Source: Ruditapes philippinarum (Eukaryota). Taken from it: a DNA stretch of 64,000 bases. The first letter of the stretch is position 1, and every line of letters begins with the position of its first letter. Under the pieces are notes generated by a model. The model ran no database searches. It saw only the letters and a program-made list of their open reading frames with translations, and was not told where the DNA came from. Location of the stretch: the NCBI RefSeq assembly GCF_026571515.1, contig NW_026857880.1, forward strand, positions 496,001 through 560,000, read 5' to 3'. A program made the position numbers and the translations under genes. Positions 3,842 to 50,169 of the stretch are shown here, piece after piece.

Positions 3842-6800
3842 TCATCGTTTATCTGTCAAAACTTTAGGAGGATTGGTGTTGCAACTTCCGCTGCATATTA
3901 GGCACCACACTGAAAAACAGAAAATGCATTTAGACATTTTAACAAATCATAAATAAGTTTATTCTTAAACAAAAAAACAGACATTTATCAAACAAGGTGC
4001 AAACTATTATCTCATTTGAGTATATTTGATTAACCAGACGACATACAGTATCTTTTGTCAATGTGCCAAAATTATATCATGTCTGGGGCCTTTTTGTTCA
4101 TTGACATGCTCTTAAAATATCGTTTTTGTTCTGTGTAATTTATTTCATCTTATCTTGTATAATAAATATATTTATTATACTTTGTTCACATGAGAGTGAC
4201 CGATTTATAATTTGATTCATCATTTGTTTTCTTAATAAACCATCATGAGAAAATAATTCATTAATTATCAAGAGAAAATAATGATCCTATTCGAGTCTAA
4301 GTTTTTTGTGAACCAAATTCATTTTTTTTTTGTAAAATTAAACATTAATTGAATATGTCATATAAGTAACAAATTTAAGTAAACAAATGCAATGTAGACA
4401 CAAAGACATTTACCACTCTCTTCCTCAAAAGCAATAGTCTCTCTTTTACTGCGCATTGTGTAGTCTTTCTCAACAAACACCGACTCGTAGTCTTTACAGA
4501 AGGCAGCTATCCGTTCTCCGTACATTACCACTTCTGACGGTTCTACAAACGTCTTTGACGTGCACTTGAATGTCTGCCTGATTTCATAGTCACCATTGTC
4601 CTGAATTTAAGCACAAGGTGTCTATACATTTCATACAAATAATTGATTGATAAAGTTAGATGTTAAAATTAACATTTGTGTAGCAAATAAAATTAAAATA
4701 TTCAATTATATAACATGGTCCCATGTAAAAGGCAAGAATGGTCATTATGATTCCGATTATTTTAATGTTCGAGCTATTTATCACATACCAAACTTAGTAT
4801 GCATACACAATATAGGTCAAATCGATTATATTTAGACAAGAACTGCATCTAAATTTCACAACTTACTCTTTCTGCTTGATAAAGAATATCTGTCAAATAG
4901 TCCATTGAATGTCTAGTTTTCTCTATGTAACAAACGCCCTTCTCAACAAGTTTAATGACACTGTATCCCTAAAATGTAATACTTTGTTTTAAAATCTCAA
5001 AATAAATACTTGCTTTAAATAGAAAGGTTGTTTTGTTTGCTGTTGTTTTTATTTCTAGAGAGAGTTATAGGAACAAAATAATGAGATGGGACTCTTCTGT
5101 TCATTAGAAATAAGGAATGGTACGACGTATATTGAAATATTCTCTAAGGAATTAAATCTAATTGATGAATAGTAATCATTTGGTATGTGAACATACCATA
5201 TATAGTTGCTTATTGATGCAAATATGCAGTATTTAAATTAAAATGTAAATATACCACAGAAAAGTCATGGAACGCAATAGATGGTGTGACTTTCTTGGAT
5301 GTTACTTTGGCGACGGTTGCTATGATCAGTTCTGCTTCCTCGTCAATCATCACATCCTCGTAGGCCCTTACAGCATCTCCAATATGTCCTACCACTCTTC
5401 GATACTGAATAAAGGATGTACATTAGCAGTTATTATTATTTCCATAGGTCACGTCTTTTATTATAATAGGTTAATTTCCGGATGATACAAAAGTCAATGT
5501 TGTATTTAAAAAAAAAGATATACTGGCATGCGAGCAGTTCCCGTACAAAAATCATAGTTACTTAAACATTATTTTTTATTACGATCACTCACCAAAATTT
5601 AAATGTTACACATCAATATTCGGCTCGTAACACAAATCATGGAAATTCCATCATGTTCTAAACATAGAATAACCCTTACTTATGAGGCCTCAAATGGGGT
5701 ACCGAAATTATCCATTATTTTGTATGAAGAGAAGTAGTTCCCGTACATAAAATCTAACCCATTGTAATTATATAAGTTTATTATATCGGACCTATTTTTC
5801 ATTTACAATTGTTGAACAGACCATTATCTAAGAGATAAATAGATGTAATTCAGGAAATAGAGCGTAGACTAAACGCGGGTATCTATTACCCGGTACCGTT
5901 ACCCCAACGCATTCACATGCAATAGCATGCTTGTATGCATGATATTTTACGTATCAAAGCCATAAAATTATTTTATATAGTAATATTGGTCAAAATTCTG
6001 ATAATTAAACAAGTTTTCATCACATTGCCTACTTATCTGTAAACAGGTGGTATTAGTGGAAAACCCTTTAACAAGCCTCACGTGTAAGTATTTTTGCGCA
6101 TGCGCGCAAGGACGGAATCCCCCAGAGAAAACAAGGTCACGTTTTGACGACGCACAGGTGGAAGTGATTTAAAATGAGACTTTTTATACGTACTACCGAA
6201 CTGACACTTAGATTTTGTCTTGTTTATGTATCTGCTTAATTTGAAATGAATTTTTGAAGAATGCAAGTAAAAATCAAGCGTTTAAATGAAAAATACGGGT
6301 ACTGCTTCTGTACGGGAACTGCTCGCATGCCAGTATATATATAAATTATCAAATGTCAAAAATCATTAATTGAACAAAACGCCGCTTTCGATAAAAGTAT
6401 TATGGAATATTGCCTTAATGTATCGTGTAGGGAATCAGCTTTGGACTATTAAACGTTTTTAGACATTCTTTTCGCAATTAATATGATGGTTAAATCGTGA
6501 CTTAAATTCAAGCATTAATGGCACTTTTACTGGTAAGTCTTTGAGTTGCAAAAAATGGATAGTGATACAGATACCAAGAGCTAAACCGTTTCTGACATCA
6601 ATAAATGCTTTCTTCAACAAAATAATCTTAATAACAACAGATTGGATGGTTATTTGAACATTGCAAAATATTTGGAAAATGAACTTACCTCTGGTACTGC
6701 TTCGGTCCTTAAGATAACACAGGCAAGAACAAAAATGATATACCTTGAGTTTTCCTGTGAATACACAAAACGGTTACTGTAACAAAATAGATTTGAAATG

Positions 6801-7636
6801 ACAATGTGAATTTATCGGAAATAAGTTAAGCACACACGACATTTTGCCTCAATTTTGACATAACCACAACCAGAATGTTTAATTTCATTTGGGCAAACTT
6901 GTAAGAACCATCTGTAAAAAAAACCTGCAACAACTGGAACAAGCTCTGCACCACGAATGGCAAGCTTTTACTAAAAATCGCATTAGACGCCTTACTTGTA
7001 GTATGAGGAGAAGGGTTGAGGCTATTATCCGAGCATGTGACGGTTACAAACGTTATTAAAAATTTGACTACATAATGTAATTTTAGATTACGCAATCGTC
7101 AACATTTTCCAACAATAACCACGAGTAAATGTTTTGTAAACGTTCCAACACCATACTTATAAACATTAATATGTTTGGTAAAAAACATCACATTTCCTTA
7201 TGCTGCAATCATTTCATTAAGCATAAACCTAACTTATAGATTTCTTGGTTTATAATCTTGGTATCGCTACTTATCAAATTACTTTTACTTAGCTCAATTA
7301 AGTCGTTATCTCATGACAGTGCTTTTAATCAAAACCAATTTTAAATTTCCGGGGTGTGCTTCACTTATTTCCAGGTGTATATATTTCTGTTAAATGTTCT
7401 TGTAAATATTATGAAATTCAAAACCTGACATGACGCGTATAAAACAAGACCTGTTTCTTATCGTCTGTGAATTTAATACATACGTAAAATGTAGTTTGAA
7501 CTCATTATCTCCAATTAGGATAATGTGGATAATTTAAAAGTATTGCATTTACAAATTTAATAAAGTGATGTTTAATCATGATTTATTTTAAACAATTGAA
7601 GAAGAAAATAAAATTTAAAGAAACTCCACTTACCAT
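3842..7636 (-). CDS. Secreted BRICHOS-domain precursor, paralog 1 (191 aa, 6 exons)
   Basis: Exons 7636-7634 (ATG|GTAAGT), 6754-6689, 5404-5255, 4968-4867, 4600-4414, 3909-3842, all GT-AG with consistent phases. Protein: M-ENSRYIIFVLACVILRTEAVPE (signal-like) ...SIAFHDFSVGYSVIKLVEKGVCYI... GERIAAFCKDYESVFV (BRICHOS HDF, CY and FC hallmarks) ...RSKR / ETIAFEEESVWCLICSGSCNTNPPKVLTDKR*. Confidence 0.88.
5523..6333. mobile_element. MITE with 25-bp TIRs and TA target-site duplication, in intron 2 of BRICHOS paralog 1
   Basis: CTGGCATGCGAGCAGTTCCCGTACA ... TGTACGGGAACTGCTCGCATGCCAG; absent from paralog 2. Confidence 0.88.
6817..7380 (+). mobile_element. Internally deleted Tc1/mariner element
   Basis: Transposase C-terminus NLQQLEQALHHEWQAFTKNRIRRLTCSMRRRVEAIIRACDGYKRY* at ~6921-7059; right TIR ACTTATTTCCAGGTGTA; left TIR damaged. 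Confidence 0.8.
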
Positions 7637-10187: not shown

Positions 10188-10874
10188 TTAAATGTGTTCA
10201 GTTAATTGAAGTTTTCTTAAACTATTTGCTTCATAGATAAATTTTGCCAGTTTTCTAATATTGTCTTTCGCTGTATCTGACATTATAGTATTAAAGCGTT
10301 CATTACTGTTTAGAATCACATTCCAATTACAAAAAATTAAGTGTTTGTGTCTAAGGTCGTTGTACAGCTGACAGTCAATCAAAAAATGCACTTCATTTTC
10401 CACAACATACGCATTACGTTTAACACAAAATGAACAAAATCTAAATTCTCTCTCAATATTTAAGTGCCTTCCTGTTTCAGTTTTCAAGTCATGGCCACTG
10501 CATCTAAAATTTGCTAATGCGCGTTTATATTTATAAGGCATACTCAGTGACAAATAACATTCGTCAGTAATAGATGTTTTATAAATTCTGTAACTAATTG
10601 CTTTAGGCGATGAATTAATGTCAGACATTATCTCTTGTCTACAGCAGTCTGAGACTCGTGTCCTAAATACTTGCATGAATGTATCAACATTTCCGACTCC
10701 GTTCGCTGTCCATGCGTAACCAAGGCCTAATTGAAATAACATGCGTTTAACATGAGTTGCCCATGTGATTCGTCCTTGTTCATCTAAGTTTCTAAGCATA
10801 ATATAGCATTGTCTTGGTAACCGATATTGTGGCATTTCCGTTAATTTCAGCCAGTACTTAACACATTTAGACAT
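10188..10874 (-). pseudogene. LINE ORF2, C-terminal zinc-knuckle part
   Basis: ANFRCSGHDLKTETGR...FCSFC...ENEVHFLIDC; a second frameshift lies near 10906. Confidence 0.85.
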
Positions 10875-10905
10875 ATATGTTACACTAATTGGAAGGCGTC
10901 CGCAT

Positions 10906-12126
10906 TCAGTAAGGGCGAAGAAACTTGCAATTAACGTTTTGATTTAAACATGCTATCCTTTTGCAAAATGATATATGCACATTTTCGATCTGTCGAGATG
11001 TGTTATATCCCCAAATCTCTGATGAGTAAGTCAAAATGGGTTTTACCATAGCATCGAATAGTTTGAAAGCATCATTAACACTAAAATAACCAAAATGTTT
11101 CTGATAAGCATAAATAACATTAACAGCCTTGGTCGCCTGTATGGCTAGTACATATTTCGTTTTAGTCCATGAGAGTTTCGGGGTAAAGTATGCTCCTAGG
11201 TATTTGTAACAATTGACAACTTCTATTTCATTTTCATTATACATCAATTGCTCATATTGTCTTAGTGGACCGCCATTTCTGAAAACGATTATCTTAGATT
11301 TATCAAGGTTTATACACATCCCAGTTTCAGCACAATAATTACTTATTTCATTTATTTGTCTTTGGAGATTTATAGCCGTGTGTGCAATACTGGAGACATC
11401 ATCAGCAAATAATAAACAATACATCTCTCCTGTATGTTGTGAGATAGTGATTCCATTTTGACATTTATTATTTAAGTATTTCACAAGGTCATTTATGTAT
11501 AGGTTAAAAATGATTGATGACGTCACACAACCTTGTTTTGTTCCTTTGGCGCACTGAAAGAAATCAGTCAGCCCGTTCATCGTAGGTCCTGATACTTTTA
11601 CACATGACCGAAGTTGAGAATAAATATTTCGGAATAACGTTAGAAATCTGCCTTCAGGGGATATTCCCTTCCTTTCTAAACTTTCCCATATTTTGAAATG
11701 TACACAATTGTCAAAGGCCTTAAGAAAGTCAACGTAAAACACATATAATCGTCCTCTTGATTTACTAATATATTTTTGTACTATAGATTGAAGATTAAAA
11801 ATGTTATCAATAGTTGAATAATTACTCCTAAAACCAGCTTGGCATTCATCTATAATGTTATTCAATTCTGCCCACTTGGTCAAACGATTTGCGAGGATTT
11901 TCATAAAAATTTTACTCAAGCTATTTCCTACAGAAATTGCCCTGTAATTATTCGGATCGGATTTATTTCCTTTCTTGTGTACTGGGGTAACAATGCTTTC
12001 TGCCCAGGTAGGTGGGAAATGTCCCGTATGTAGTATATTGTTGAATAATTTATTCAAGTATGGTATTGTTAAATATATAGTACCTTTGAACATTCTATGC
12101 ATATTCCATCCACTCCTGTAGCGCAA
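10906..12126 (-). pseudogene. LINE ORF2, reverse transcriptase part
   Basis: Motifs PVHKKG, NYRAIS, QAGFR, FYVDFLKAFD, GTKQG, LLFADD and YKYLG. Confidence 0.93.
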
Positions 12127-13451
12127 TTATTTTTCAAGGAATTAACACTTATCATGATTTCGTCGTCTGTGACGTCACAATCAAGATCTGTGTCATCTAT
12201 TCTATCATAAAGACTATTGAATATATCTTGATTATTTAAAACTTGATTGTTTTCAGAAAATAGCTCGCTTAAGTAGGAAATGTTATGTTGTGTTCGTCTA
12301 AATTTACGCAAACTGCTATATTTCAGTTGTTTCATCTTTGCACATTCCGAGTCCCACCAACGCGGTTGTTCATGATGTGCCTCCAGACTTCTGTTTTTAC
12401 CTTTATATACTTTTAAAAGCATGTTTTTACCGGCGATTTTAAATAGGTCTATAAAAGTTGTACATGTGTTGTAGATATTTTCCTCTTGAATAATATCATT
12501 ATAAAAGGTTTCAAATAATGGTGTGAATTTTTGTATAAATGTATCTCTGAGCGACTCTTTCCATTTATACGTTTGATGTTCATAAAGGTTCGGAAATGAG
12601 TGAAATTCCGTTGAATTCACGTTTACAGTATCAAGTAGAATTTCACAGGTAACCGGAAAATGATCTGATAAATCAAAGTCTTCAACACTAAAGTCTTGTA
12701 TACGATCAAATATGTCGGTCGACGCAATAAAATAGTCAACAACACTCAATCCTCCATTTGCTGTACATGTAAAGTTCCCGGTTGTATCTCTAAATAGACG
12801 TCCATTAAGAATATGAATCCCTAATGTACAACACATTTCAATAAGCGATATACCGTAACGGTTGCTTTTTTCATCGCGATTTTTTCTGTTCATATCAAAT
12901 ATGTCACCGGGATAATCTGTGCATGAGTTAAATACGTGATCAATGTCGTCATCTATTATGATATCTTCTAGGTTTCCGGTTCGAGCATTTAAGTCCCCAG
13001 CTACAATGAGGGACACATCACCAAGGTTTGAGATAATACATGTCAGTTTTTGAGAAAGGATATCTATACCGTTTTCCGACGTGTCTTGGTAAAGAGGTGA
13101 ATTCTCCGGTGCAACGTAGCAGAAAAATAACACAATACTCTTTTCTAATTTTGCAATATGCTTATCAATATAAAGGACAATACATTCTTTGAATTCCGGG
13201 TATATACGTTTAACAATGGCATTATTACATAATTCATTCCTTATAAAGACTGATACTCCACCTGAGCCTCGATAACATTTTGATGTTCTTGGGCAATCAT
13301 AATTTGTGAAGCCAGGTAATAAATTATCATAGTTATCATGCGTTGTTTGCCAAGTTTCACAAATGCAGACGACATCATATTTATTGCAAAATGTAATAAA
13401 TTCGTTGTGTTTGTTGTATTTACGTAATCCTTGAATATTTAATGAACACAA
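12069..13451 (-). pseudogene. LINE ORF2, apurinic endonuclease part
   Basis: Motifs LNIQGL, CICETW, GGVSVF, AGDLNARTG, SVVDYF and SDHFPV; frameshifted relative to the RT. Confidence 0.9.
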
Positions 13452-13496
13452 TTTTAAACTGTCATATTTACACGATTTTGGGCTTTGGCCGAATTC

Positions 13497-13832
13497 CTAT
13501 TTTTTAACAGAAACGGGACACTTTTTGTCTTTGCAATATGTGTAAATTTCATTATCAACAATCAGTTTATCATACTTAAAATATGCTGATTTGCCAGAGT
13601 CCAGACATTCTTTAAAAAATGGATATAATTCGGATCTTGCTAATGATATTCTATGGGGAAGGTCTTCTGATATACGAAACGGCAAGTCAGTTGACTTTCT
13701 TTTTGAGCGAAAAGCTGTGACAATGGCTTTTCGGTCAGCATAGTGTGCGAATCTAGCAAAAACCATTCTACTTCCTGATTTACGATATAGGTCATCAAAT
13801 TTTATATCTGAATCATCTACGCCATGACTGTC
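13497..13832 (-). pseudogene. LINE ORF1 C-terminal fragment
   Basis: ...IKFDDLYR..RMVFARFAHYADRKAIV...FRISEDLP...AYFKYDKLIVD, typical of an ORF1 RRM/CTD region. Confidence 0.7.
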
Positions 13833-17471: not shown

Positions 17472-20400
17472 TTATTTCAAAGTTTTTTCAGGAGGAGGAT
17501 TGTCGTTGCAACTTCCTTTGCAAATGAAGCACCACACTAAAAAGCAATTATACAATATATTAAGACATTTGCAAAAATCATAAATAAATTCATCCATAAC
17601 AAAATAAGAGATATTAAACGACGCCAGGTACAAAAGGAGTATATTTGATAACAATGACAAAATAAATTATCTTTCTTCCATATGCGAAAATTATATCAAT
17701 ATTCATGTATGAAATGTCTGTATATATATTTCAGGATCTTCTTTTAAATTTCTTGAAACATAATATATTGATTAAATTTAAAAGCACGTATCATTTTAGA
17801 TCATAAGATATATGGATTGGAAAACATTCTTTTACAATAACATGCTCTGAAAGATAACTTTTACGTTCTGTGGAATTTATTTTGCCTTATTACGCGCGGT
17901 CTTTCGATGCATAATAAATATAAATGTACATGTTCTTTTTTCTCATGAGAGTGACCGGTTTATAGTTTGCTTTATCATTTTCTCTCTTTATTAAGTATCA
18001 AGAGAAAAGTAATAAGCTGTTTTAAGTGAACCAAAGTCATGTCCTAACTTTAAACATTAATTGAATTTGTCATATAAGTGACAAATCTAAGTAAACAAAT
18101 ACAATGTAGACAAAAAGATACATACAACTCTGTTCTTCAAACGCTTGGGTTGCTCTCTTACTACGCATTGTGTAGTCTTTCTCAACAAACACCGACTCGT
18201 AATCTTTACAGAAGGCAGCTATCCGTTCTCCGTACATTTCCACCTCTGACGGTTCTACAAACGTCTTTGACGTGCACTTGAATGTCTGCCTGATTTCATA
18301 GTCACCATTGTCCTGAATTAAAGCACAAGGTGTTGATACAAAAACATTTCATACAAATAATTGATTGATAAAGTTAGAAGTTGAAATTACTATTTGTTTA
18401 GCAAATAAATCTACAATATTCATTTGGATAACCTGGCCCGATATAAAAGGCAAGTATGGTCATCATTGTTCCGATCATGTTTTGATGTTCGAAAAATTTT
18501 ACCTCATAACAAACTTATTTATGCATTTACAATCAAAGTCAACTTGATTATATTCAGACAAAGACTGCAACTTACTCTTTCTGCTTGGTAAAGAATATCC
18601 TTCAAGTATTCCATTGAATGCCTAGTTTTCTCTATGTAACAAACGCCTTTCTCAACAAGTTTAATGACACTGTATCCCTAAAATGTAATACTTTGTTTTA
18701 AATCTCAAAATAAATACTTGATTTAAATAGAAAGGTTGTTTTGTTTGCTGTTGTTTTTATTTCTAGAGAGAGTTATAGGAACAAAATAATGAGATGGGAC
18801 TCTTCTGTTCATTAGAAATAACGAATGGTACGACATATTTTGAATAAATATTCTCTAAGGAATTTAATCTAATAGATTATGAAGTAATTTTTTGGTATGT
18901 GAACATACCATATATAGTTGCTTATTGAAGCAAATATGCAACATTTAAATTAACATGTAAACATACCACAGAAAAGTCATGGAACGCAATAGATGGCGTG
19001 ACTTTCTTGGATGTAACCTTGGCGACGGTTGCTATTATAAGTTCGTCTTCCTCGTCAATCATCACATCCTCGTAGGCCCTTATAGCATCTCCAAAGTGTC
19101 CTACCACTCTTCGATACTGAAAGAAGTATAAATATTAGCAGCTATTATCGTTTCCATAAGTCACGTCTTTTATTTTAAGAGGTTGATTTCCGGATGATAC
19201 AAAAGTACCTTTTAAAAAAAAAAACGCCGCTTTTGATTAATACATTATCATGAAATATTGCCTTAATTCATCTTGTAGTTAATCAGCTTTGGACTATTCA
19301 ATATCTAAAGAATTTCTCTTTGCAGTATAAATGCATTGTGAAATCATGAATTTAAATGTAAACATGGATGCCACTTTACTGATAAGTTTCAGTGTTGTAT
19401 AAATTTGATTCTGATAAAGATACCAATGCCTAAACCGTTTCTAACATCATTAAAGTTGTTCTGAAACAAAAAAAATCCTGTTAAGAACAGATTAGATGAT
19501 TATCTGAACATTACAAAATATTTGGAAAATGAACTCACCTCTGGTACTGCTTCGATCCTTAAGATAACACAGACAAGAACAAAAATGATATATCTTGAGT
19601 TTTCCTGTGAATATAACAAAGAATTACTTAACAAAATAAATTTGAAATGACAATGTGAATTTTTTTGCAACTATACGCCTGGAAATAAGTAAACCCCCCG
19701 GCATTTTGCATCAATTTTGACATGACGACAACTGAATTTTTAAATTTTATTTGGGCAATGGTACGAACCACCTGTAGTCAACTTGCAACGACTGGAACAA
19801 GCTCTGCACCAAGAATGGTAAAATTTACCTCATAATCGCATTAGACGCATTACTGGTAGTATGACGGTTACACACGTTATTTACAATTTGGCTACATAAT
19901 GTCATTAAAGATTACATCGTCGTCATCATCGTCAACATTTACCCCCCAAAAAAACGTTCAGTACATGTTTTGTAAACGTTCCACCACCATACTTATAAAC
20001 ACTTACATTTCTGGTAAAATAACACAACATATTTGCTTATGATTCAATAATTTGGTTATGAATAAACTTAACTAATAAATGTCCTGGTTTATAACTTTGG
20101 TATCACTACTTATCAAATTACTATTTCTTAGCTCAATTAAGTCGCCATCTCCTGATAGTGCTGTCAATCAAAACCAATTTTAAATTTCCGGGGTGTGCTT
20201 AACTTATTTCCAGGTGTATATATTTATGTTAAATGTTCTTGTAAATATCATGAAGTTCGAAACTTGACATGATGCTTATAAAATAAGACTTAATTATTTC
20301 ATATTGTCTGTGAATTTAATACATATGTAAAATGAAGTTTGAACTCATTTATCTACAATTAGGATGATTTATTTGTTAGTAATTAACATCATATAGTAAT

Positions 20401-20676
20401 TCATTCATAATCAATGAGCACCTTTAGTGTCAATTTAAACTCTTGTGACCCTTTATCAAGTGATTTCTTTTGCAAATACAAGAACGATATTTATGTTACT
20501 ATTAAACTCACAAAACAAATCTTGTGTAAACTGTGTACATCTTTTGTTTTCTTTTCAAACCATCGCATATAATGTGGATAATTTAAAAGTATTGCATACA
20601 GTTATGTTTAAATAAATCATGATTTATTTTAAACAATTAAGACTAAAATAAAATTTGTAGAAATTCCACTTACCAT
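17472..20676 (-). CDS. Secreted BRICHOS-domain precursor, paralog 2 (190 aa, 6 exons)
   Basis: Exons 20676-20674, 19604-19539, 19116-18967, 18677-18576, 18312-18126, 17536-17472. Exons 1-5 have the same sizes as in paralog 1. Ends RSKR / ATQAFEEQSLWCFICKGSCNDNPPPEKTLK*. Confidence 0.88.
19674..20218 (+). mobile_element. Internally deleted Tc1/mariner element (counterpart in duplication copy B)
   Basis: TIRs TACGCCTGGAAATAAGT / ACTTATTTCCAGGTGTA flanked by TA; remnant NLQRLEQALHQEW*NLPHNRIRRITGSM. Confidence 0.82.
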
Positions 20677-24286: not shown

Positions 24287-27200
24287 CTAATTCCTATCGT
24301 CTGATGGTTGTGATAGGTCTGTTGGTCGTGAGTTACAGTTTCCAATACAAAACCCACAGTTCACTGTTATAAAGGAGAAACAAATCAGTGTAACATGTAT
24401 CTACTAGATTCAACAAAATAACAAATATTCATATATCTTCTTACTTTAATTCATTATCTTAGTAAATAGGTACTCCACTAAGGCTGTCTGAAATGACGTG
24501 ACTGGAAATACTTTGACGTCATGATATTTTGTACCATTTAATGAACGTCTGAACCAATAACTTATGTTATAAGGCTTTTTGATCTCAGTGCGGCTCATTA
24601 TGCAAGAAAATCCGATATAAATAAGATTAAAATCTAAAATATGCGAGTTCACATATAACAATTAGTTAAGAGAGAAGTGTAAGAGAACAAATCATGTTTG
24701 AAATAATAAGAAATCTCAGAATTAAAACGTTTCTGCAAATAAAGATAGGTTATTAAATTTCTCCACTTACTTGCAGCTACAGACATTGTCCTGATTGACC
24801 GCTTTCTTTTACTTAGGAATTTTCGTGTCGAGAACACAACGTCGTCATCTTTACAGAATTCAGCAATCTTTTCTCCAAAACGAGATATGTCTGATGTCGG
24901 GACAATCTCATTTGAGATACAGGTAAATGTTTGTGTAATGTCGTAGAATCCATCTCTCTGAAATGATAATGTACGTATCTCACCATTAAATTTACTCGCA
25001 TCTAAACATTACATTCACTCGCATCTAAACATTACATTTACACGTATCTCACCATTACATTTACTCGTATATGTACATTACATTTACACGCATATGTACA
25101 TTACATTTACTCGCATATGTACATTACATTTACTCGCATATGTACATTACATTTACTCGCATATGTACATTACATTTACTCGCATATGTACATTACATTT
25201 ACTCGCATATGTACATTACATTTACTCGCATAGGAACATTACTTTAACGCGTATCTCATCTTCACACTTACATTAATAAATATTATCCTCCAATTGTTCT
25301 ATGTTCTGTCGAGAAACATGTTTTAATCCACAACATAATTATGTTCTTTACAGTCACCATCACTGTATACATATAAACAGTTTTTCCTAATTTTTATTTG
25401 TTTGGGTCGTCAGACCAAACAAATAATGGTAGCGAAATTTCAGAGTCTAATGTTGTTAATTGCAAATGCCGAAAGTAGTCCACTTTTTTTGAAGCGGTTA
25501 CTTCCCTTTTGTATGTACACTAAAGCCGAAAAATTCAGGGGAGATCACTGCGTAAAGATGGTCAAAGACAGGCGCATCAATTTTCAAGCAATGTAATTCC
25601 CGAATGGTCGAAGATTTCTAATATTGTTTTATTGTATTTTCTGATCGAAAATAACTAAATACAAAGCGGACATTCAATCTCTGACACAGAAGTTTACGAC
25701 AAACCTAACAACAAGTAGTTCTCAAAACAGCTTAAAACTAGCGATTTAAAAGAAAGAAATATTTTATTTTGTTACAAGTATCCAACAAATTACAACGCAT
25801 TTAAAGTTAAACAATAGCGTTGGCTTATAGAATTGTCAATAAATGCACAATTACAAATTACGCGGATGAATATGATTTTATCAATGAAAATACTATTTAT
25901 TACCGAATACTACACAAACCGAGTAGTGGAATTTATAGGTTCTACATGTCGGACTGTTTGGGCGAGAGGATTTTCGCTAAAATATTTACTTCAATTTTAA
26001 ACAACAGGTTTACCCTGAACAAAATACCTCGAAATTAATAAGGATTACAAACCCGAAATGCAATGGAAGTTCTAAATTTAGAATGACTTGATATTATTCA
26101 GATTTTGTGTGTAACTTCTCCGTGGTTCAGTGGTAACGCGCTCGCTTAGTGAGTGAGAGGTCTGGAGTTCGAATCCCAGTCGAGGAAACTTTTTTTTTTG
26201 TTAAATTCTTTTTTAAGTGTTTTTGTTAAGGAAGTAGCCATGATATGCAAGGATAAAGTGTGGCTGTCGTAAAAAATGAACATAAATGATTTTTTGATGC
26301 AACTCTAGTTATGCAGAATTCCGTATGTATCAAACTCTGGTGCCTTGCAAAATGAACTATAATACATAAAAATAAACCTATACAGGAAAATGCATACAGA
26401 TATACAGTTGATTTAGATTGCAAAGATCAGAAAATACCACAGAACTTGCAGCCCTTTGATTCTTTATAAATATAAATGCTTATAGTAAGCTCCAGGATTA
26501 TTTACATCTGTGTTAAACAACAGTTAAAGTCGTTACAAGCCCTAATTTAGAATAATATGGGTTTCTTCAGCCCGTTCACATATAAATTCACCGTGGCTGA
26601 AGGGTTTTCGGGCTCGCTTAGGAAGCGAGAGGTCTGGAGTTCAAATCCCAGTAAAGGTAACTCATTTTTTTCAAATTGTTAAAGTCAAATAAACATTGGA
26701 TTGAATATCAGTGTTGCAATTAGTCTTATAGCCAATTTAGTACAATTAAAACGCTGGAAAGCATTGATGGCACTATACATATAATCTCACAACTTGCACC
26801 TTTCTTACATTCTGAGACCCAAACAAATTCAGCGCCTTCTGTGCTTTGATTATATAATGTTTTCGTTCTCTCGTTTAGCTCAATAGGGAAATTAATAAAT
26901 TTGTAAACAAGGGGATGCTGGTTCGATCCTCGGGCAAGTCGGAATTTCTCCATGGCAAATGATCTTAGACATTGAGCCTAATGGTCATTTGTTTCTGACA
27001 TCTGGTCCTATTTAAGTAAGCTTCTTGCAGAACAATTACCGATTTGTTATCCGGGAAAGCCAGTAAGGTGGACTGAGATATGACCAAAACTATGTAAAAA
27101 TTAGAGTAAAAACAACAAAAAACCTTTGAGTCAAGTGAATTGATGTTGAATGAGACGCAAATTGTATCCCATATTTTCTTATAATGTATAGAATAGTAAA

Positions 27201-28853
27201 AAATGAAATATATTTACTTTCATTGATGTATTATACATATCTATCATTTCACCAAGTGTATGTCGTGTATGGAAGATATTACATCTTTGGCTTTTGTCAT
27301 TCCTGATGGCGGTGTAATTCTGTTAAAAGAATTCAGAAAGTAAACACATGTTTTCATGAAAATCGTATAATTATATCATCCGATATAATATATTGTTTAT
27401 AGTGGTGTTACAGTGTTTCAGTATTGTGGATAATACCTATTTTACAAGAGAATTGCCTTTTAATAGTGTTGGTATAAAAAAAGGCATACCTGTTATTATT
27501 TTTTTTAACAAAATTCGAAAATAAATTTGATATTTCTAATGTACTGTATTATATTTTGGAACGTTTTTTTTCTTTCAGTTTGCCCTTAACGGTCCTGGGT
27601 TCAAATACCGCGAAAGATTTTGGTTTCTTTATTGTTAGGAAACTATCCAGCAAGCTTACTGTGGTTCGGAATAAAGCACCTGATGTCATCCTTCACCAGT
27701 TAAAAGGTCGACCTTATGACCTTTACAGTGTTTCTGTAAATTAAAACCCAACAACACAAACATATTCTTCCATTGCATAATGGTGGGCAATGGTATATAT
27801 TACAAAATAATAATTAAATTATCCTTAACCAAACCATTAGTAAAACTCACTCGATTAGAGCAATAGTGAATGTAAAGACAAGTATGTAAAAGCGTTCGTG
27901 AATATAATTAAATTGACTGATTTTACGTATTATTTTGAAAAACATACCGAGTGAAAGTCATGCAAATTGATGGTTGACATAATTATATCTGACAGAGAAT
28001 TTATTCTTATCAGCGCATATTGTTCTTGTTTGTCAAACACAGCGTCTTCAACAGCAATCACTTCTCCTCCATAATGAGACTCGAAGCTGTGAAACTGAAG
28101 ATAAGATAAGTATTGAAATGCAAAAGCAAATTTTGACAAGGAGCAAACCCTAACAAGAGGTATAAACGGTGTAAATTGCAGATTCGGTTTGATGAAGTCT
28201 GTTCATAAGATGTACTCAAATAAAACATCAAGGTTGGTGATAAGGTGCAGCCTTGTTTGAGCATAGTGATATCATCGAACCGAATGAATCAGCTACTCAT
28301 TTCTGAGTCACTAGCTTAAAGGTCGTGATAGATAAATGTATAACAGAAGATATACTCGTATAGGTTTAATTCATTCTCTATTATATTGTCATGTTTGAAT
28401 AGTGCCTTGTCTAAATAGTGCTTAAGACAATGTTTTTTAGAAAAAATAGGCCTTACCTCTGGGAATGCTCTTGCTGTCACCGTGAGAATGGCAAAAAGAA
28501 ATACTTTCGTAGAGTCCTGAAATTTATTTGAAGCCAATTTTAAGTATAACAAAATAATTAGGTAACCGTCTATAGCCAGCAATTGAAAGAATTGAAAAGA
28601 AAGATTAATAAGATTAATGATTAAAAAAATAACAACACTTATTTATGTAGTTTTTATGACAAAATGATATTTAGACCTTAAAATTAAATGTGTACCCTTA
28701 TGGCATGTATAAATCTATGTCAGTTACTTAATTTATCGGTTTTAAGCACTTTCAAATACAATTATCTTATAGTTTGTTTGAAAACTGTTTGAAATATGAT
28801 TAAATTTAGCAATAAACATTCAATGAACAAATCAAATATGCACAGCTTACCAT
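24287..28853 (-). CDS. Secreted BRICHOS-domain precursor, divergent paralog 3 (191 aa, 6 exons)
   Basis: Exons 28853-28851, 28516-28457 (DSTKVFLFAILTVTARAFPE), 28094-27948 (...TINLHDFHS), 27319-27218 (NYTAIRNDKSQRCNIF...), 24957-24771 (...TFTC...FGEKIAEFCKDD...KRKR), 24363-24287. Same intron phases and the same 102-nt and 187-nt exons as paralogs 1 and 2. Peptide SIRTMSVAAMNCGFCIGNCNSRPTDLSQPSDDRN*. Confidence 0.86.
24970..25275. repeat. 23-bp minisatellite ACATTACATTTACTCGCATATGT
   Basis: About 13 copies, degenerate at the edges, next to the exon-5 acceptor of BRICHOS paralog 3. Confidence 0.92.
26116..26199 (+). pseudogene. tRNA-Pro-like pseudogene or SINE head (second copy ~26590-26670)
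   Basis: A-box TGGTTCAGTGG, CTCGC-TTAG(T/G)-..G(T/C)GAG arm, B-box GTTCGAATCC and a T-run; acceptor and T stems are imperfect. Confidence 0.55.
26870..27120 (+). mobile_element. Degenerate tRNA-derived SINE (similar fragments near 27590, 42560 minus, 52800, 54837, 56200, 61600, 63700)
   Basis: TAGCTCAATAGG A-box, GGTTCGATCC B-box, AAAC-rich tail. Confidence 0.45.
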
Positions 28854-40000: not shown

Positions 40001-43000
40001 CTAATGATAAACTGCCTAAAGGTATCATTGAAGTATACTCAGCCACATACATCTACATACCGCAATGTATGGAATATCAAATTCCGAATGCTTAAACATG
40101 TTAAAGAAATTGAAGGTGTCATCTTATACAATGTAGAGCATCTTGATTATCATTAGCATGTTCTCCTATTTGACCAATACTTTATGTTTAAGAGAATGAA
40201 AAACTCAAGTGATAATAAATAGGCATGACATCCAGGGACATGTTGTAAAACATTAACAATAAGCACACACCTTAGCATACATAATACCAAATTTACAGAG
40301 TAACATCAATAAAGAATATCTTGTGTAGCATTAAGAATTGAAGTTGGAATAAAACTTTAAAGATGCTATCTTTGACTCAATTCATGAGCCATTGCCCAAA
40401 TCTACAACAAGGATTCTGGTGAAAACATGCACTTGGCTACCTTCATTCATCCTTTTACAGCCAGGTGTAAACATAATAAAATTCAAAATGCCTAGTGATC
40501 AATGTCCAAACCACAGTTGTATTGAGCAATCAATTAAGGTACATTTGTAGTTAGTATGAATAACTATGAATCATTGTGAAAAATCAGCATATTATGCCTT
40601 CTTCTGGATTTAACAAAGTTTAAAATCTTAAAGGAATTAAAAGATCACACTCCTTTAGAGTTTCAAAGTTTTATAAAGGATATAAATGATCACACGGAAC
40701 AGGGAATACTTTATCACATACGTATACATGTTTTAAGTATTAGATTAAATAATCTGTTTATCACAAATAACTGAACAGGTTCAATGTGAAGGTTATAATG
40801 GACTTACCTGCCATTCTTGTGCAGCAGGATCATATCTATGTAAGGTATATGTTTGTGAGATCATATCTTACCTGCCATTCTTGTGCAGCAGGATCATATC
40901 TATGTAAGGTATATGTTTGTGAGATCATATCTTACCTGCCATTCTTGTGCAGCAGGATCATATCTATGTAAGGTATATGTTTGTGAGATCATATCTTACC
41001 TGCCATTCTTGTGCAGCAGGATCATATCTATGTAAGGTATATGTTTGTGAGATCATATCTTACCTGCCACTCTTGTGCAGCAGGATCATATCTATGTAAG
41101 GTATATGTTTGTGAGATCATATCTTACCTGCCATTCTTGTGCAGCGGGATCATATCTATGTAAGGTATATGTTTGTGAGATCATATCTTACCTGCCACTC
41201 TTGTGCAGCAGGATCATATCTATGTAAGGTATATGTTTGTGAGATCATATCTTACCTGCCACTCTTGTGCAGCAGGATCATATCTATGTAAGGTATATGT
41301 TTGTGAGATCATATCTTACCTGCCATTCTTGTGCAGCGGGATCATATCTATGTAAGGTATATGTTTGTGAGATCATATCTTACCTGCCATTCTTGTGCAG
41401 CGGGATCGTATCTATGTAAGGTATATGTTTGTGAGATCATATCTTACCTGCCATTCTTGTGCAGCGGGATCATATCTATGTAAGGTATATGTTTGTGAGA
41501 TCATATCTTACCTGCCATTCTTGTGCAGCAGGATCATATCTATGTAAGGTATATGTTTGTGAGATCATATCTTACCTGCCATTCTTGTGCAGCAGGATCA
41601 TATCTATGTAAGGTATATGTTTGTGAGATCATATCTTACCTGCCATTCTTGTGCAGCGGGATCATATCTATGTAAGGTATATGTTTGTGAGATCATATCT
41701 TACCTGCCATTCTTGTGCAGCAGGATCATATCTATGTAAGGTATATGTTTGTGAGATCATATCTTACCTGCCATTCTTGTGCAGCAGGATCGTATCTATG
41801 TAAGGTATATGTTTGTGAGATCATATCTTACCTGCCATTCTTGTGCAGCGGGATCATATCTATGTAAGGTATATGTTTGTGAGATCATATCTTACCTGCC
41901 ATTCTTGTGCAGCAGGATCATATCTATGTAAGGTATATGTTTGTGAGATCATATCTTACCTGCCATTCTTGTGCAGCGGGATCATATCTATGTAAGGTTT
42001 ATGTTTGTGAGATCAATATCTTTCCTGCCATTCTTGTGCAGCGGGATCATATCTATGTAAGGTATATGTTTGTGAGATCATATCTTACCTGCCATTCTTG
42101 TGCAGCGGGATCGTATCTATGTAAGGTATATGTTTGTGAGATCATATCTTACCTGCCATTCTTGTGCAGCGGGATCGTATCTATGTAAGGTATATGTTTG
42201 TGAGATCATATCTTACCTGCCATTCTTGTGCAGCGGGATCATATCTATGTAAGGTATATGTTTGTGAGATCATATCCGGTCTCTCCTCCAGTGTCGAGGT
42301 TGGTGCCCACTGCTTTGGAGGTAACATTGTATCCCATGGCACTTCTTCAAAAGCTCTAATAGATAAAAAATTATATTTTTTTCGATATATTATAACTATC
42401 AATTCAGATTATATGTAGTTATGTCATAAGAATTGCCAGTCATGTGGTTTGAAAGTCCAGTTAGGGCAAGCCAATTTTTAAAGTTCTAATTATAGATAAA
42501 AGGTTATATTTTTTTCTAAAATTTATAACTTTAAAATTCAGACTAGTAATCTCAAGAATTGCTAGCAGCATGGGTTTAAATTCAGTCAGGGGCAAGCCAT
42601 TGTTTCCTTGAGCAAGACACTTTACACTAATTGCTGAGTAATTACTGGGTCCTGAGGAACCAATTTGAGTGTTTCTGTACAAATGTATTTCCAAAGCAAA
42701 CAAGCTAAAATAAATAATGTTTAAGAACTATTTAAAATATAATATGTCACACTTAAATTATGGTCATGATTAAATCAATCTTGATTAACTAGCCTGCACA
42801 GTTAAATATGCATGTATGAAGTCTATGTTTAATGAAGGTCAAAAGTGGCGACAATTTAACTTCATGCAATTTATAAGCAAAAGATATGAATTTTGAGCCA
42901 AATATAGGTAATTGTGCATGAGAAACTTAATGTACAGGACAAACCAGAACAATATGAGAAAAGGACATAGCCCTGAAAAGAGCTTTTCCGGGTGCCAAGC

Positions 43001-46000
43001 AAAGGTAACGACAGTTAACTTACTTTTGAGTTGAAGTACTATATTGGTATTTCATTGCAAGATGATCACGGCCCTCTTTGCTCTGTTCTGATGGAGGCTT
43101 TTCTACAAACATTGACTGAAATAAAAGGGAGATTAAAAAGTTGATTATGGAAAATCTTTCACAATCATTGTAATATATGATCCAATATAAGATAAAATAA
43201 TATCAGATTCTGAAGAAAGATCCTGGATTTAATAATAGCAAATAAATAATAACATGACATATCATATGCTTTCAAAATTAAATTTTAATCTTTAATTGAT
43301 TCAATGTCTCCTTCTTTGACATTGTAACATACATATAACAAAATAGAAAGAAAACTTATTTTGTTTAATAGTAAAAGAATTTCATTTTAAAAAGTGCTCA
43401 AGACATTCACATAGATATTGAATGTGCCAAGCATCATCTTATACAACTAAACAAAATCATTTCATTTTTTATAAATAACTAATTACATATTTCATAGTTT
43501 TACATTTTATTAGCATCTTGAAATATTTGCTTTAAAAACTGATGACTGAAAATAAATGGATTTTATCTTTCTGACCAAAAGCAGTGAATTAAGTTTAACT
43601 TGGCTATAAACGGTTACATGTATCAGTAGATCAGGCCTGCTACATGTACATCATGTATATGTATGTGACTGTGTTAACAGTTCACCAAGTATTTCAATTT
43701 AGTATTTTGATATTGATAATTATCTCTTATTCTCACAAAAAGAGAGTGGACAATTTCAAACCAGGAAAATTGTGAATACAGTGATCGGTTTGATAATGAT
43801 AGTAAATATGTTGTTTATTTTACAAAGTTGATAAAGAAAAACAGTGTAAACCTTTGCTCTTCTCATATCCAAAGCTTCTTTGGGAGGGTGTCTTGGGTCA
43901 TGAGCACTTGTCCATCCTTTGTAAAGAAAAAAGAATATACTGATTAGCAAATGATTATAATAATATTATCACTGATTATTTTTACCAATATTAACCCTTA
44001 ATGTTTCAATTTGATACTTATATCTTATTTCTAATCTAATTTTCACAATAATTCTAACAAGAGCTGTCGGTAGGACAGCAACGCTCGACTATTCTTAGTG
44101 CTTGATAGTAAAAAAAAAATGCTTGATAGAGTTACCTCCTCCTATTTACAGGTTGGGGTCATGATGGTGAACAAGTGTGTTAAGTTTCAAAGCCATATGT
44201 CAATGGACTTTGAAAATATTTGAACTATTACAAAAACTTTAACGTAAATTCTAAGTCGAACAAGAGCTGTCGGTAGGACAACAACGCTCGACTATTCTTA
44301 GTGCTTGATAGTAAAACAAAATGCTTGATAGTGTTACCTCCTCCTGTTTACAGGTTGGGGTCATGATGGTGAACAAGTGTGCAAAGTTTCAAAGCCATAT
44401 GTCAATGGACTTTGAAAATATTTGAACTATTACAAAAACTTTAACGTAAATTCTAAGTCGAACAAGAGCTGTCGGTAGGACAGCAACGCTCGACTATTCT
44501 TAGTGCTTGATAGTAAAACAAAATGCTTGATAGAGTTACCTCCTCCTGTTTACAGGTTGGGGTCATGATGGTGAACAAGTGTGCAAAGTTTCAAAGCCAT
44601 ATGTCAATGGACTTTGAAAATATTTGAACTATTACAAAAACTTTAACGTAAATTCTAAGTCGAAAAAGGGGCATAATTCTGTCAAAATGCTTGATAGAGT
44701 TACCTCCTCCTGTTTACAGGTTGGGGTCATGATGGTGAACAAGTGTGCAAAGTTTCAAAGCTATATGTCAATGGACTTTGAAAATATTTGAACTTTTACA
44801 AAAACTTTAACGTAAATTCTAAGTCAAAAAAGGGGCATAATTCTGTCAAAATGCTTGATAGAGTTACCTCCTCCTGTTTCCAGGTTGGGGTCATGATGGT
44901 GAACAAGTGTGCAAAGTTTCAAAGCCATATGTCAATGGACTTTGAAAATATTTGAACTATTACAAAAACTTTAACGTAAATTCTAAGTCGAAAAAGGAGC
45001 ATAATTCTGTCAAAATGCTTGATACAGTTACCTCCTCCTGTTTACAGGTTGGGGTCATGATGGTGAACAAGTGTGCAAAGTTTCAAAGCCATATGTCAAT
45101 GGACTTTGAAAATATTTGAACTATTACAAAAACTTTAACGTAAATTCTAAGTCAAAAAAGGGGCATAATTCTGTCAAAATGCTTGATAGAGTTACCTCCT
45201 CCTATCTACAGGTTTGGGTCATGATAGTGAACAAGTGTACAAAATTTTAAAGCTATATGTCAATGGACTTTGAACATATTGAAACTATTACAAAAACTTT
45301 AACGTAAATTTTAAGTCAAAAAAGGGGCATAATTCTGTCAAAGTGATTGAAACAGTTACCTCCTCCTGTCTACAGGTTGGGGTCATGATTGTGAACAAGT
45401 GTGTAAAGTTTCAAAGCCATATGTCAATGGACTTTGAAAATATTTGAACTATTACAAAAACTTTAACATAAGTGGTTAAGCCGACGCCGACGCTCGGGTG
45501 ACTGCAATAGCTCTACTTATTCTTATCGAATAGTCGAGCTAAAAAGGGGCATAATTCTGTCAAAATGCTTGATACAGTTACCTCCTCCTGTCTACAGGTT
45601 GGGGTCATGATGGTGAACAAGTGTGCAAAGTTTCAAAGCCATATGTCAATGGACTTTGAAAATATTTGAACTATTACAAAAACTTTAACGTAAATTCTAA
45701 GTCGAAAAAGGGGCATAATTCTGTCAAAATGCTTGATACAGTTACCTCCTCCTGTCTACAGGTTGGGGTCATGATGGTGAACAAGTGTGCAAAGTTTCAA
45801 AGCCATATGTCAATGGACTTTGAAAATATTTGAACTATTACAAAAACTTTAACGTAAATTCAAAGTCGAAAAAGGGGCATAATTCTGTCAAAATGCTTGA
45901 TACAGTTACCTCCTCCTGTCTACAGGTTGGGGTCATGATGGTGAACAAGTGTGCAAAGTTTCAAAGCCATATGTCAATGGACTTTGAAAATATTTGAACT

Positions 46001-49000
46001 ATTACAAAAACTTTAACATAAATTCTAAGTCAAACAAGAGCTGTCGGTAGGACAGCAACGCTCGACTATTCTTAGTGCTTGATAGTAAAAAAAATGCTTG
46101 ATAGAGTTACCTCCTCCTGTTTACAGGTTGGGGTCATGATGGTGAACAAGTGTGCAAAGTTTCAAAGCCATATTGTCAATGAACTTTGAAAATATTTGAA
46201 CTATTACAAAAACTTTAACGTAAATTCTAAGTCGAAAAAGGGGCATAATTCTGTCAAAATGCTTGATAGAGTTACCTCCTCCTGTTTACAGGTTGGGGTC
46301 ATGATGGTGAACAAGTGTGCAAAGTTTCAAAGCCATATGTCAATGGACTTTGAAAATATTTGAACTATTACAAAAACTTTAACATAAATTATAAGTCGAA
46401 AAAGGGGCATAATTCTGTCAAAATGCTTGATAGAGTTACCTCCTCCTGTTTCCAGGTTGGGGTCATGATGGTGAACAAGTGTGTAAAGTTTCAAAGCCAT
46501 ATGTCAATGGACTTTGAAAATATTTGAACTATTACAAAAACTTTAACGTAAATTCTAAGTCGAAAAAGGGGCATAATTCTGTCAAAATGCTTGATAGAGT
46601 TACCTCCTCCTGTTTACAGGTTGGGGTCATGATGGTGAACAAGTGTGCAAAGTTTCAAAGCCATATGTCAATGGACTTTGAAAATATTTGAACTATTACA
46701 AAAACTTTAACGTAAATTCTAAGTCGAAAAAGGGGCATAATTCTGTCAAAATGCTTGATAGAGTTACCTCCTCCTGTCTACAGGTTGGGGTCATGATGGT
46801 GAACAAGTGTGCAAAGTTTCAAAGCCATATGTCTATGGACTTTGAAAATATTTGAACTATTACAAAAACTTTAACATAAGTGGTTACGCCGACGCCGACG
46901 CTCGGGTGACTGCAATAGCTCTACTTATTCTTATCGAATAGTCGAGCTAAAAAGGGGCATAATTCTGTCAAAATGCTTGATACAGTTACATTCTCCTGTC
47001 TACAGGTCGGGGTCATGATGGTGAACAAGTGTGCAAAGTTTCAAAGCCATATGTCAATGGACTTTGAAAATATTTGAACTATTACAAAAACTTTAACATA
47101 AGTGGTTACGCCGACGCCGACGCTCGGGTGACTACAATAGCTCTACTTATCCTTATTGAATAGTCGAGCTAAAAACTGGAAACAAAGTGATTATACCCTC
47201 GGAAGCATTAATCATTGTGATCCCTTGGAAGCATTAATCACAACAAAATTATTTGAAAATTGCAGACTCGGTTTGATTGAGTCTGTACATGAGGGATAAT
47301 GAATAAGTGCAACATCCCTCACGCCCCCAAGTATATTCATGATATTGAAGCACTGATAAATGCTATAAAATTTAAAACTTTAAGATTAATCTGAAATATA
47401 TTCAATTTGCTTTGAGTGTGAGTTAAAAAATAGCTTCTCACACCCTTCTAATATTATATATTTAATAAGATGGATTGAATCTTTGATTTAAAAACATGAT
47501 TATAAAACAAGATGAATGAATATTTGTTATCTTCCACAGACATCATAAATCTTAAATTGGAGATCATTATCTAACTATGAATTCAAATATTATTTATCTA
47601 AACTTATTGCAATTATACATACGGTAAATTGATATTACCAGTAAATCATTATCTTAAATTTACAACAGATACTGCATGTCCTACTTAAGATATAAGATCA
47701 CAATAAATACCAAAACAAAACACTTTACTTTGTATATTTCTATCTGTAAATTAAAGATGGTTCAATAATTGATTTGAATATATTAGACTGCTATTGTGAA
47801 TTCTTAAAATGTCAATAGACCATTGCTACATCAGATTATACCATGTATTGATTGTGTGCAACTGTGAAATATTTGATACATCTGATATTTATCATTTAAG
47901 GTATGAGCCACCTAATGCATTACCTCCACTTTGAAGAGTACTCAAATAGGCTAGAACTACTGTCAACTGCATTGAAACTGAGGGGTGCTGGTTCAAGCCC
48001 CAGAAGAGGCAACTTTTTTTTTCTTTTTTTTTTTTTTCTTTGATCATTTTTTGTGTCTCTCAGATCACTCTTGATAAGAAAAAAGTGTTTCATTTAAATT
48101 ATAAGATTATTATTGGTATTTTTTTTTCTAAATTGTGCAAAATTTATTATAAAATATGGTACCTGATATTTTCAAAGTCTAATAAAATAAAAACAAGACG
48201 GTAAAAGTATTTTATATTTGACAAGTGCATCCAATATACTTTTAAGAAAATTTATCCAAACTTTGAAAACAGCCCCTGATTTGAGTAAATTTTAGGGATA
48301 TTTTGAATAAGGCCCTCCAAGTAGACAAATGATCAAACAACTACTTAAAATGGGTGGGGTAGGATAACATTTATATACATATTTCAAACATTTTGAGTAG
48401 AAACAATAATTTTGATGGGTCATTTGTTAGCTGAATGCTATTATTTGTTTCTAAAATATTTTCTATAGGAAAACATTATTTCATAATGATTATATAATAG
48501 AATAATTAGAGTTTCTAATTTCTAAAAAAGAGCCCTTCTAATAGCCAAGTTTTACTTTAGAAAAATCTCCCTAACTTGCAAACCATACGGTAAACTTTGT
48601 TTAAATTTTGCATTCTTGTGTCTTTTAAGGTATATAACTGACCTATGTTGTCAATTTTATAGTTCCTTATAGTGCCCATTAGGAGGCTCATACCTTAAAT
48701 TTTATATCATTAAAAACATTTGTTGCCATAGTTATTTATGAGGTGTTTTTTCTTTAAAATAATTTCAGATTCGCCAAGGTGATACATATTTACTTACACG
48801 CACAATTGAAGTAAAAGAGCAAATAAAAATTTCAGCTTCAAATGTAATTGCAAAATCATACACATAATAAATAATTTGTAAGTTCCCTGAGGACTGTGTT
48901 GATTTTTTGTCTATGCTGATGTTACCCAATATTTAATTTTATTAGAGCTACATGTATCTTGTGGCACCTTGTCTGCTTATATCAGTATCAAAAACAGACA

Positions 49001-49829: not shown

Positions 49830-50169
49830 GATTAAGATTAAAAAGTATAATTTTCTAGCATATACAAGTTTATCTAATGGAAATCTAAAACTGTCACTTA
49901 AGTTTAGCCATTAAATCTCCAATGCAATTTTATACATTATTCCCTGTACACCATTACTTTTCCGAACAGGTGTAAACTTCCTTGTTACCCTGAGACACGA
50001 CGGAAACTTCCATATAAGGTATTTTCCGTAAGCAGGTGCGTGTTGAAACGAGCGGAAATGGTTAATTGAATTTTAGACGGGTTTGCAGTTTTACAATTAC
50101 TATGTCGCAGACAAGCCTTGTATATTGCGATCGGAGAACCAGTCATCTGTCAATTACACGACATCAACA
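49830..50169. promoter_or_regulatory. Bidirectional promoter between SPATA48 and DPY19L
   Basis: Divergent ATGs 340 bp apart. X-box-like GTTACCCTGAGAC at 49984-49996; ETS-like CGGAA at ~50001 and ~50053. Confidence 0.65.

Follow-up and report, generated by a model that had tools for sequence, protein, structure and literature searches.

The Ruditapes philippinarum window, by which we mean the whole 64-kb stretch of DNA analysed, is AT-rich animal DNA (GC 27-36%) and carries three tandem BRICHOS genes on the minus strand, g1, g2 and g3, each with six coding exons separated by GT-AG introns. Scanning all six frames with a profile revealed no BRICHOS copy beyond these three in the window, to which the paralog count is limited. 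In g1, the coding part of exon 1 is the ATG only (7634..7636), exon 2 (6689..6754) encodes a predicted signal peptide with Cys13, recognised by eye as a hydrophobic stretch, and the start of the mature domain, exon 3 (5255..5404) encodes strands β1′-β2 and the conserved BRICHOS Asp70 (5266-5264), and exon 4 (4867..4968) the first canonical cysteine, Cys86 (4932-4930), and helix 1. Strand β4′ with the extra Cys120 (4564-4562), the second canonical Cys142 (4498-4496), the RSKR site (4453-4442) and the first 9 tail residues all lie on exon 5 (4414..4600), while the coding part of exon 6 (3842..3909) supplies the tail cysteines Cys172, Cys175 and Cys179 (3904, 3895 and 3883) and then the stop. The interval 3842-4600, at which an earlier note had placed the whole cysteine pattern, comprises exons 5-6 only: it holds Cys120, Cys142, RSKR and the tail cysteines, but Cys86 falls outside it, in exon 4.

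The paralog g2 (17472..20676, minus strand, 190 aa) has its exons at 20674-20676, 19539-19604, 18967-19116, 18576-18677, 18126-18312 and 17472-17536, with the extra cysteine at 18276-18274. The divergent paralog g3 (24287..28853, minus strand, 191 aa) has them at 28851-28853, 28457-28516, 27948-28094, 27218-27319, 24771-24957 and 24287-24363, with the extra cysteine at 24921-24919. Letter for letter, g1 (191 aa) and g2 are the annotated R. philippinarum proteins P0007 (XP_060597495) and P0002 (XP_060597500), described only as "uncharacterized". The exon-4-skipped form of g3 is identical to P0014, an annotated isoform in which exon 4 (27218-27319) is skipped in frame and the first canonical cysteine and helix 1 are lost. 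The predicted peptide is interrupted in each gene by a phase-1 intron (3909/4414, 17536/18126 and 24363/24771), the tail cysteines standing on a last exon of their own.

Four of the five g1 splice joints are present in contigs. Those between exons 3-4, 4-5 and 5-6 occur in the contigs of all three contig runs, the last of them (3909/4414) being the one that builds the three-cysteine tail; the exon 1-2 joint (6753/7633) is exact in two of the three contig runs (two of the four runs overall), and only loose ends were found for exons 2-3. These three runs are RNA by guess, none of the runs listed as containing the locus being recorded as RNA, and the contigs were matched at 92% likeness, so that some may derive from paralogs or alleles. 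In the single raw-read RNA run, coverage of the g1 exons was low and none of the splice joints was listed. A missed g1 exon with a fourth tail cysteine was considered and rejected, given the stop codon of exon 6 and the observed joint. Pfam searches with single exons returned nothing at E 0.001.

An insertion of about 820 bp with 33-bp terminal inverted repeats lies in g1 intron 2 (5518-6338) and is absent at the matching place of g2; contigs of two runs skip it, as with a presence/absence allele, and its reads are abundant, as for a multi-copy MITE. Between g1 and g2 there is a LINE-type retrotransposon (10188-13766, minus strand) with endonuclease and reverse transcriptase in two frames overlapping near 12069-12126, and a 207-codon open frame (49287-49910, minus strand) resembles an exon of an unrelated gene. 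Tandem arrays at 40803-42276, 44049-47175, 57787-58436 and 24984-25246 include a 64-bp unit repeated 23 times at 98% and units of 164-222 bp that have a relative in inverted orientation near 57.7-58.4 kb; the array with the 23-bp unit lies in g3 intron 4.

Cysteine pattern of a molluscan BRICHOS branch

The products of g1, g2 and g3 are members of the BRICHOS superfamily, on the basis of a profile match above the cut-off, the conserved Asp and two cysteines, and the order of the fold. The Pfam PF04089 score is 26.4 bits for g1, against a curated cut-off of 25, and 30 bits for g2, and 45 of the 49 alignment members match the profile at E 0.01 or better. In 27 alignment rows Asp70 and Cys142 are invariant and Cys86 is present in at least 90%; in the AlphaFold model of g1, elements β1′, β2′ and β4′ and two helices follow in the expected order. 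The signal peptide is predicted by inspection, from a hydrophobic N-terminus preceding a conserved A-x-P-E motif.

In general, as the available text of the literature gives it, the superfamily rule is one Asp and two cysteines, the internal pair of proSP-C being the exception among human domains (PMC9714404, PMC10182729, PMC9627735), and some OAF proteins have an additional, unspecified disulfide (PMC9714404). The clam genes add a third domain cysteine. The motifs quoted in the earlier note (VCYI/RCNI and AFCK/EFCK at the canonical cysteines, QTFKC/QTFTC at the extra one) are all present in the window on the minus strand, and its count of six cysteines after the signal peptide, three in the domain and three in the tail, is borne out in all three genes after splicing: 86, 120, 142, 172, 175 and 179 in g1 (besides Cys13 of the signal), the same positions in g2, and 83, 117, 139, 169, 172 and 176 in g3. 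The tail, of 30-34 residues, follows RSKR (g1, g2) or KRKR (g3) and has the pattern C-x2-C-x3-C. The three paralogs do keep the third domain cysteine, as had been noted, but g1 and g2 are 90% identical and not independent, and were counted as one observation.

Homologue searches, cluster look-ups and a profile search with 31 hits among 1.84 billion representatives together yielded 70 relatives, nearly all molluscan where named. In the tree, the window genes belong to a starred, venerid clade of Ruditapes, Mercenaria and one Logan protein, with pairwise identities of 27-90% (median 38%). R160 of the convertase site is present in all 12 clade rows, cleavage itself being predicted. Cys120 is kept in 11 of the 12 clade proteins, and its conservation is more than would be expected by chance, because only 24 of the 140 columns of the domain, that of Cys120 among them, are identical in 11 or more of the 12 proteins at that median identity. 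The combination of a third domain cysteine and a three-cysteine tail is genuine and conserved in this uncharacterised branch of molluscan BRICHOS proteins. The sole clade protein without Cys120, P0013, has Val there; it keeps the CxxC, has no cysteine in the next 29 residues and then has a second CxxC, which makes four tail cysteines. The third tail cysteine, downstream of the CxxC, is thus absent together with Cys120, a joint loss seen in one annotated gene model; the Cys that P0013 has in alignment column 179 belongs to the distant CxxC and results from gapping, and spacing was used instead. The P0010 tail has five cysteines, still an odd number, and the P0011 model has no tail. Among the outer relatives, position 120 is Val, Ile or Leu in 14 of 20 (counted by eye).

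Other cysteines were also observed. In the Ruditapes paralog P0008 the furin motif has a cysteine instead of its first Arg, which brings the total to seven and could reflect an allele or an error in the gene model. Relatives with three-cysteine tails from mussel, oyster, unionids and abalone (P0047, P0028, P0035, P0038, P0063 and other Haliotis proteins) have a second extra-cysteine site before a conserved N-x-H-D motif, and five abalone proteins have a fourth domain cysteine three residues after the second canonical one.

The reading of the tail as a typical cationic antimicrobial peptide was rejected on charge: the net charge is 0 to -4 in all 11 clade tails scored and positive in none, and such a role is unlikely since the tails are neutral to acidic. 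Between g1 and g2, amino-acid changes are found at 7 of the 24 codons of the tail and at 6 of the 140 of the domain, with all six cysteines kept. The tail diverges faster than the domain in this pair, yet pN/pS, calculated for g1 against g2 only, is below 1 (0.35 for tail residues 161-183, 0.11 for the domain), and diversifying selection on the tail is not supported.

Predicted structure and cysteine co-variation

The AlphaFold model of g1 (residues 21-191, 49 sequences, an alignment depth too shallow for contact prediction) has a mean pLDDT of 89, with five models at 80-89. It places Cys120 in the middle of strand 116-126, β4′, between two helical regions, and gives the tail two strands (169-171 and 175-178) with the CxxC at the turn and a pLDDT of 86 over block 171-180. 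By strand alternation, Cys120 is predicted to share a face with the conserved I114, Q116, F118 and S122; from this and from the Val, Ile or Leu of the outer relatives, its side chain is likely to point inward, an orientation compatible with contact to a docked tail as well as with simple burial. For Mercenaria P0004, modelled with its signal peptide on 37 sequences, Cys120 is on the same strand and a helix is found at residues 2-16, with residues 158-179 below pLDDT 50. Modelling, which the earlier note had put forward for relating the third domain cysteine to the tail, therefore sets Cys120 on β4′ and orders the tail in g1, but leaves the tail of P0004 at low confidence. For strand β4′ the available text of PMC10182729 reports that, in AlphaFold models, it stabilises the hairpin of the client together with face A.

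An ITM2 model and the Atlas model of g1 can be superposed with TM 0.74 over 149 residues, all within 21-182, and since the domain has 140 residues, at least 9 tail residues are included in the superposition. Agreement with solved chains is weak (2yad, Z 4.2, 67 of 77 residues aligned, rmsd 3.4); Foldseek on the PDB gave no match at E 0.001, and a sequence search of solved structures gave no hits. The best fold matches of the full-length domain model were LolB/LolA and ependymin-related lipid-carrier folds, with Z up to 6.0, below kinship level.

Co-variation was scored in 31 hand-picked complete molluscan precursors, namely g3 and 30 of the 70 relatives, with cysteine counts entered by hand. 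Fragments, single-exon frames, near-duplicates and models missing the tail or an exon were left out (among them P0011, P0014, P0025, P0030 and P0062), as were the doubtful read-through models P0061 and P0069 and the long-tailed or multi-domain P0016, P0031 and P0037; the retained pairs P0002/P0007 and P0003/P0008 each fall within one 90% cluster. An odd number of tail cysteines is found in all 23 precursors that carry an additional prodomain cysteine, an even number in none of them, and the four even tails all belong to precursors without it. The homologs keeping one cysteine without the other, which would speak against the tether according to the earlier note, do exist: four of the eight precursors without an extra domain cysteine (P0021, P0027, P0029 and P0032, one sister clade) still have a three-cysteine tail. 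Fisher's test gives p 0.002 for the association, uncorrected for kinship although kin share states, while only two independent pairs are found on starred branches, never in the wrong direction (sign test p 0.5). The co-variation is suggestive and not statistically established.

Total cysteine number is even in 21 and odd in 10 of the 31, the five abalone proteins and P0008 carrying two extra cysteines. Odd totals in 10 of 31 and four odd tails with no domain partner mean that an odd tail does not need such a partner and that an unpaired cysteine is tolerated. Moreover, P0030, a model lacking the C1 exon, has a cysteine in the β1-β2 region with a two-cysteine tail, which would be a counter-example if the model were complete. 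The extra cysteine occurs at two sites, β4′ (11 rows) or the β1-β2 loop (12 rows). All 11 β4′ rows, 10 venerid plus Mytilus P0024, have the odd tail cysteine downstream of the CxxC; P0024 lies outside the venerid clade in trees, and its β4′ cysteine is three residues earlier, in uncertain register. In the 12 β1-β2-loop rows the odd tail cysteine is upstream in six, ambiguous (C-x2-C-x2-C) in six and clearly downstream in none.

A proposed domain-to-tail disulfide and its alternatives

We lean towards a reading in which a disulfide joins Cys120 to a single cysteine of the tail, with Cys179 as the most likely partner (a choice drawn from P0013), so that a two-chain chaperone-peptide complex would exist after cleavage. 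Cys86-Cys142 would be the canonical bond, and the tail a short hairpin, with C172-x-x-C175 at its turn, predicted to dock where ITM2-type client peptides dock. In the secretory pathway, Cys86-Cys142, Cys172-Cys175 and Cys120-Cys179, or an equivalent bond from Cys120 to the tail, would form, the co-variation suggesting the tail cysteine downstream of the CxxC as the partner. The predicted furin-type cleavage at RSKR would then give the two-chain complex, cleavage alone leaving the peptide bound, and thiol exchange or reduction would free it. The complex may itself be the working form, and the active part could be either the peptide or the uncovered chaperone. Redox release as a regulated event, also part of the earlier proposal, is doubtful, and weaker than the disulfide itself.

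The chaperone-to-client disulfide of the earlier note thus retains the position of Cys120 on the client-holding strand, its loss with the third tail cysteine in P0013 and the 23 odd tails, but has against it the four unpartnered odd tails, the unplaced tail of P0004 and the chance that Cys120 is a buried substitute for Val. According to this last explanation, which we regard as rather unlikely, Cys120 would be a free buried thiol, the peptide would be released, and its odd cysteine would be used in a homodimer or in a link to another secreted protein. The aliphatic residues of the outer relatives and the sister-clade tails agree with it, and there are precedents for both uses in the texts available: polaricin solves its odd cysteine with a Cys10-Cys10 homodimer (PMC10608444), and Cys38 of GKN2/TFIZ1 is bonded to Cys58 of TFF1 (PMC2632736). 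Against it stand the presence of the cysteine in 11 of 12 clade proteins at a median identity of 38%, its loss with the third tail cysteine in P0013, and the absence of even tails among the 23 complete precursors that have an extra domain cysteine.

The same co-variation fits a transient bond, in which the tethered thiol would guard the odd cysteine during folding and pass it to a dimer or partner on secretion. A pro-region cysteine aids folding of pro-BPTI. Within BRICHOS, Bri2 reshuffles intra- to intermolecular disulfides (PMC9278091), and CxxC-driven thiol attack has been proposed for Activin-A (PMC11502825), in both cases as given in the available text. This explanation is nonetheless improbable; a total of six cysteines permits a fully oxidised stable monomer. 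Less probable still is a four-cysteine metal site made by Cys120 and the three tail cysteines, an extension of the three-cysteine site suggested earlier. The CxxC at a predicted hairpin turn would suit it, as would the two CxxC in the tail of P0013, which lacks Cys120, and the four tail cysteines of P0020; but the proteins are predicted to be secreted, two-cysteine tails without CxxC exist (P0026, P0034) and cysteine spacing varies from x2 to x5. Under the oxidising conditions of the secretory pathway, Cys4 metal sites are uncommon.

The disulfide between Cys120 and the tail can be extended, as a tentative and somewhat less likely generalisation than regulated release, to a covalent latch at two sites in molluscan short BRICHOS precursors with a redox-gated, two-output switch. 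The latch would run from the β4′ cysteine to the tail cysteine downstream of the CxxC in the venerid proteins and a single one of mussel, and from the β1-β2-loop cysteine to the upstream tail cysteine in the proteins of mussel, oyster, unionids and abalone. Cleavage would arm the complex, and thiol exchange, possibly via the tail CxxC, would both free the peptide and uncover the binding face of the chaperone.

Comparison with known systems

As described in the text available for each source, ITM2/Bri2 and the gastrokines share with the clam proteins the BRICHOS Asp and two cysteines, a dibasic site (PMC9714404, PMC11168071) and a short β-prone peptide at the C terminus, predicted to occupy the client site; they have a signal peptide, which in the clam proteins is predicted. 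Bri2, however, holds Bri23 weakly, by non-covalent contacts (KD 9.5 uM; PMC11168071), whereas the clam domain has a third cysteine, and the cysteines of Bri23 pair together in one bridge (PMC9714404), whereas the clam tail has three. In Bri2, peptide occupancy lowers anti-amyloid activity (PMC11168071) and reduction switches on chaperone oligomers (PMC9278091). In proSP-C an additional disulfide within the domain ties the loop after helix 1 to face A (PMC10182729), and the odd cysteine of GKN2 bonds TFF1, a different gene product (PMC2632736), while the proposed clam bond would join the domain to its own peptide. A parallel is offered by Activin-A A60 and TGF-β, in which the prodomain is disulfide-linked to the mature part after furin and CxxC-like exchange has been proposed (PMC11502825); the Activin-A bond has been experimentally shown, in an unrelated fold, whereas the clam bond is inferred.

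The polychaete BRICHOS-AMPs (arenicin, alvinellacin, nicomicin, polaricin and HfBRI), again as far as the available text goes, resemble the clam precursors in their BRICHOS prodomain and in a cysteine-bearing tail of 19-56 residues that diverges faster than the domain; they are secreted and cleaved at a dibasic site (PMC6265681, PMC10745061), as is predicted for the clam proteins. Odd cysteine numbers are also found among worm tails, with one in polaricin (PMC10608444), five in HfBRI-54 and 11 in HfBRI-75/91 (PMC10745061). These peptides have been described as polychaete-only (PMC9756803) and are mostly cationic, unlike the clam clade tails with their charge of 0 to -4. The literature text mentions no prodomain-peptide bond in them, although precursor alignment figures may show otherwise; the supplement of PMC10745061 holds no precursor text, and its alignment figures may show an extra domain cysteine in odd-tail worms. 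No named worm precursor was among the homologue hits, and they are hence absent from the trees.

In a literature search that covered mainly openly available text, no publication dealt with these molluscan proteins or with a disulfide joining a BRICHOS domain to its own peptide; alignment figures and supplements may add to this. How BRICHOS domains hold and release aggregation-prone peptides is an open question in the field, and the solved BRICHOS chains listed by the fold searches, 2yad and 8rnu, are titled as domain-only. A natural covalent latch, if true, would give a stable chaperone-client complex for structure work. The results further suggest that molluscs have an expanded, as yet unannotated family of peptide precursors with non-cationic tails. 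A mussel transcript for a BRICHOS domain-containing protein, whose membership of this group is not established, is listed as up-regulated on toxic-alga feeding in Table 2 of PMC4203926.
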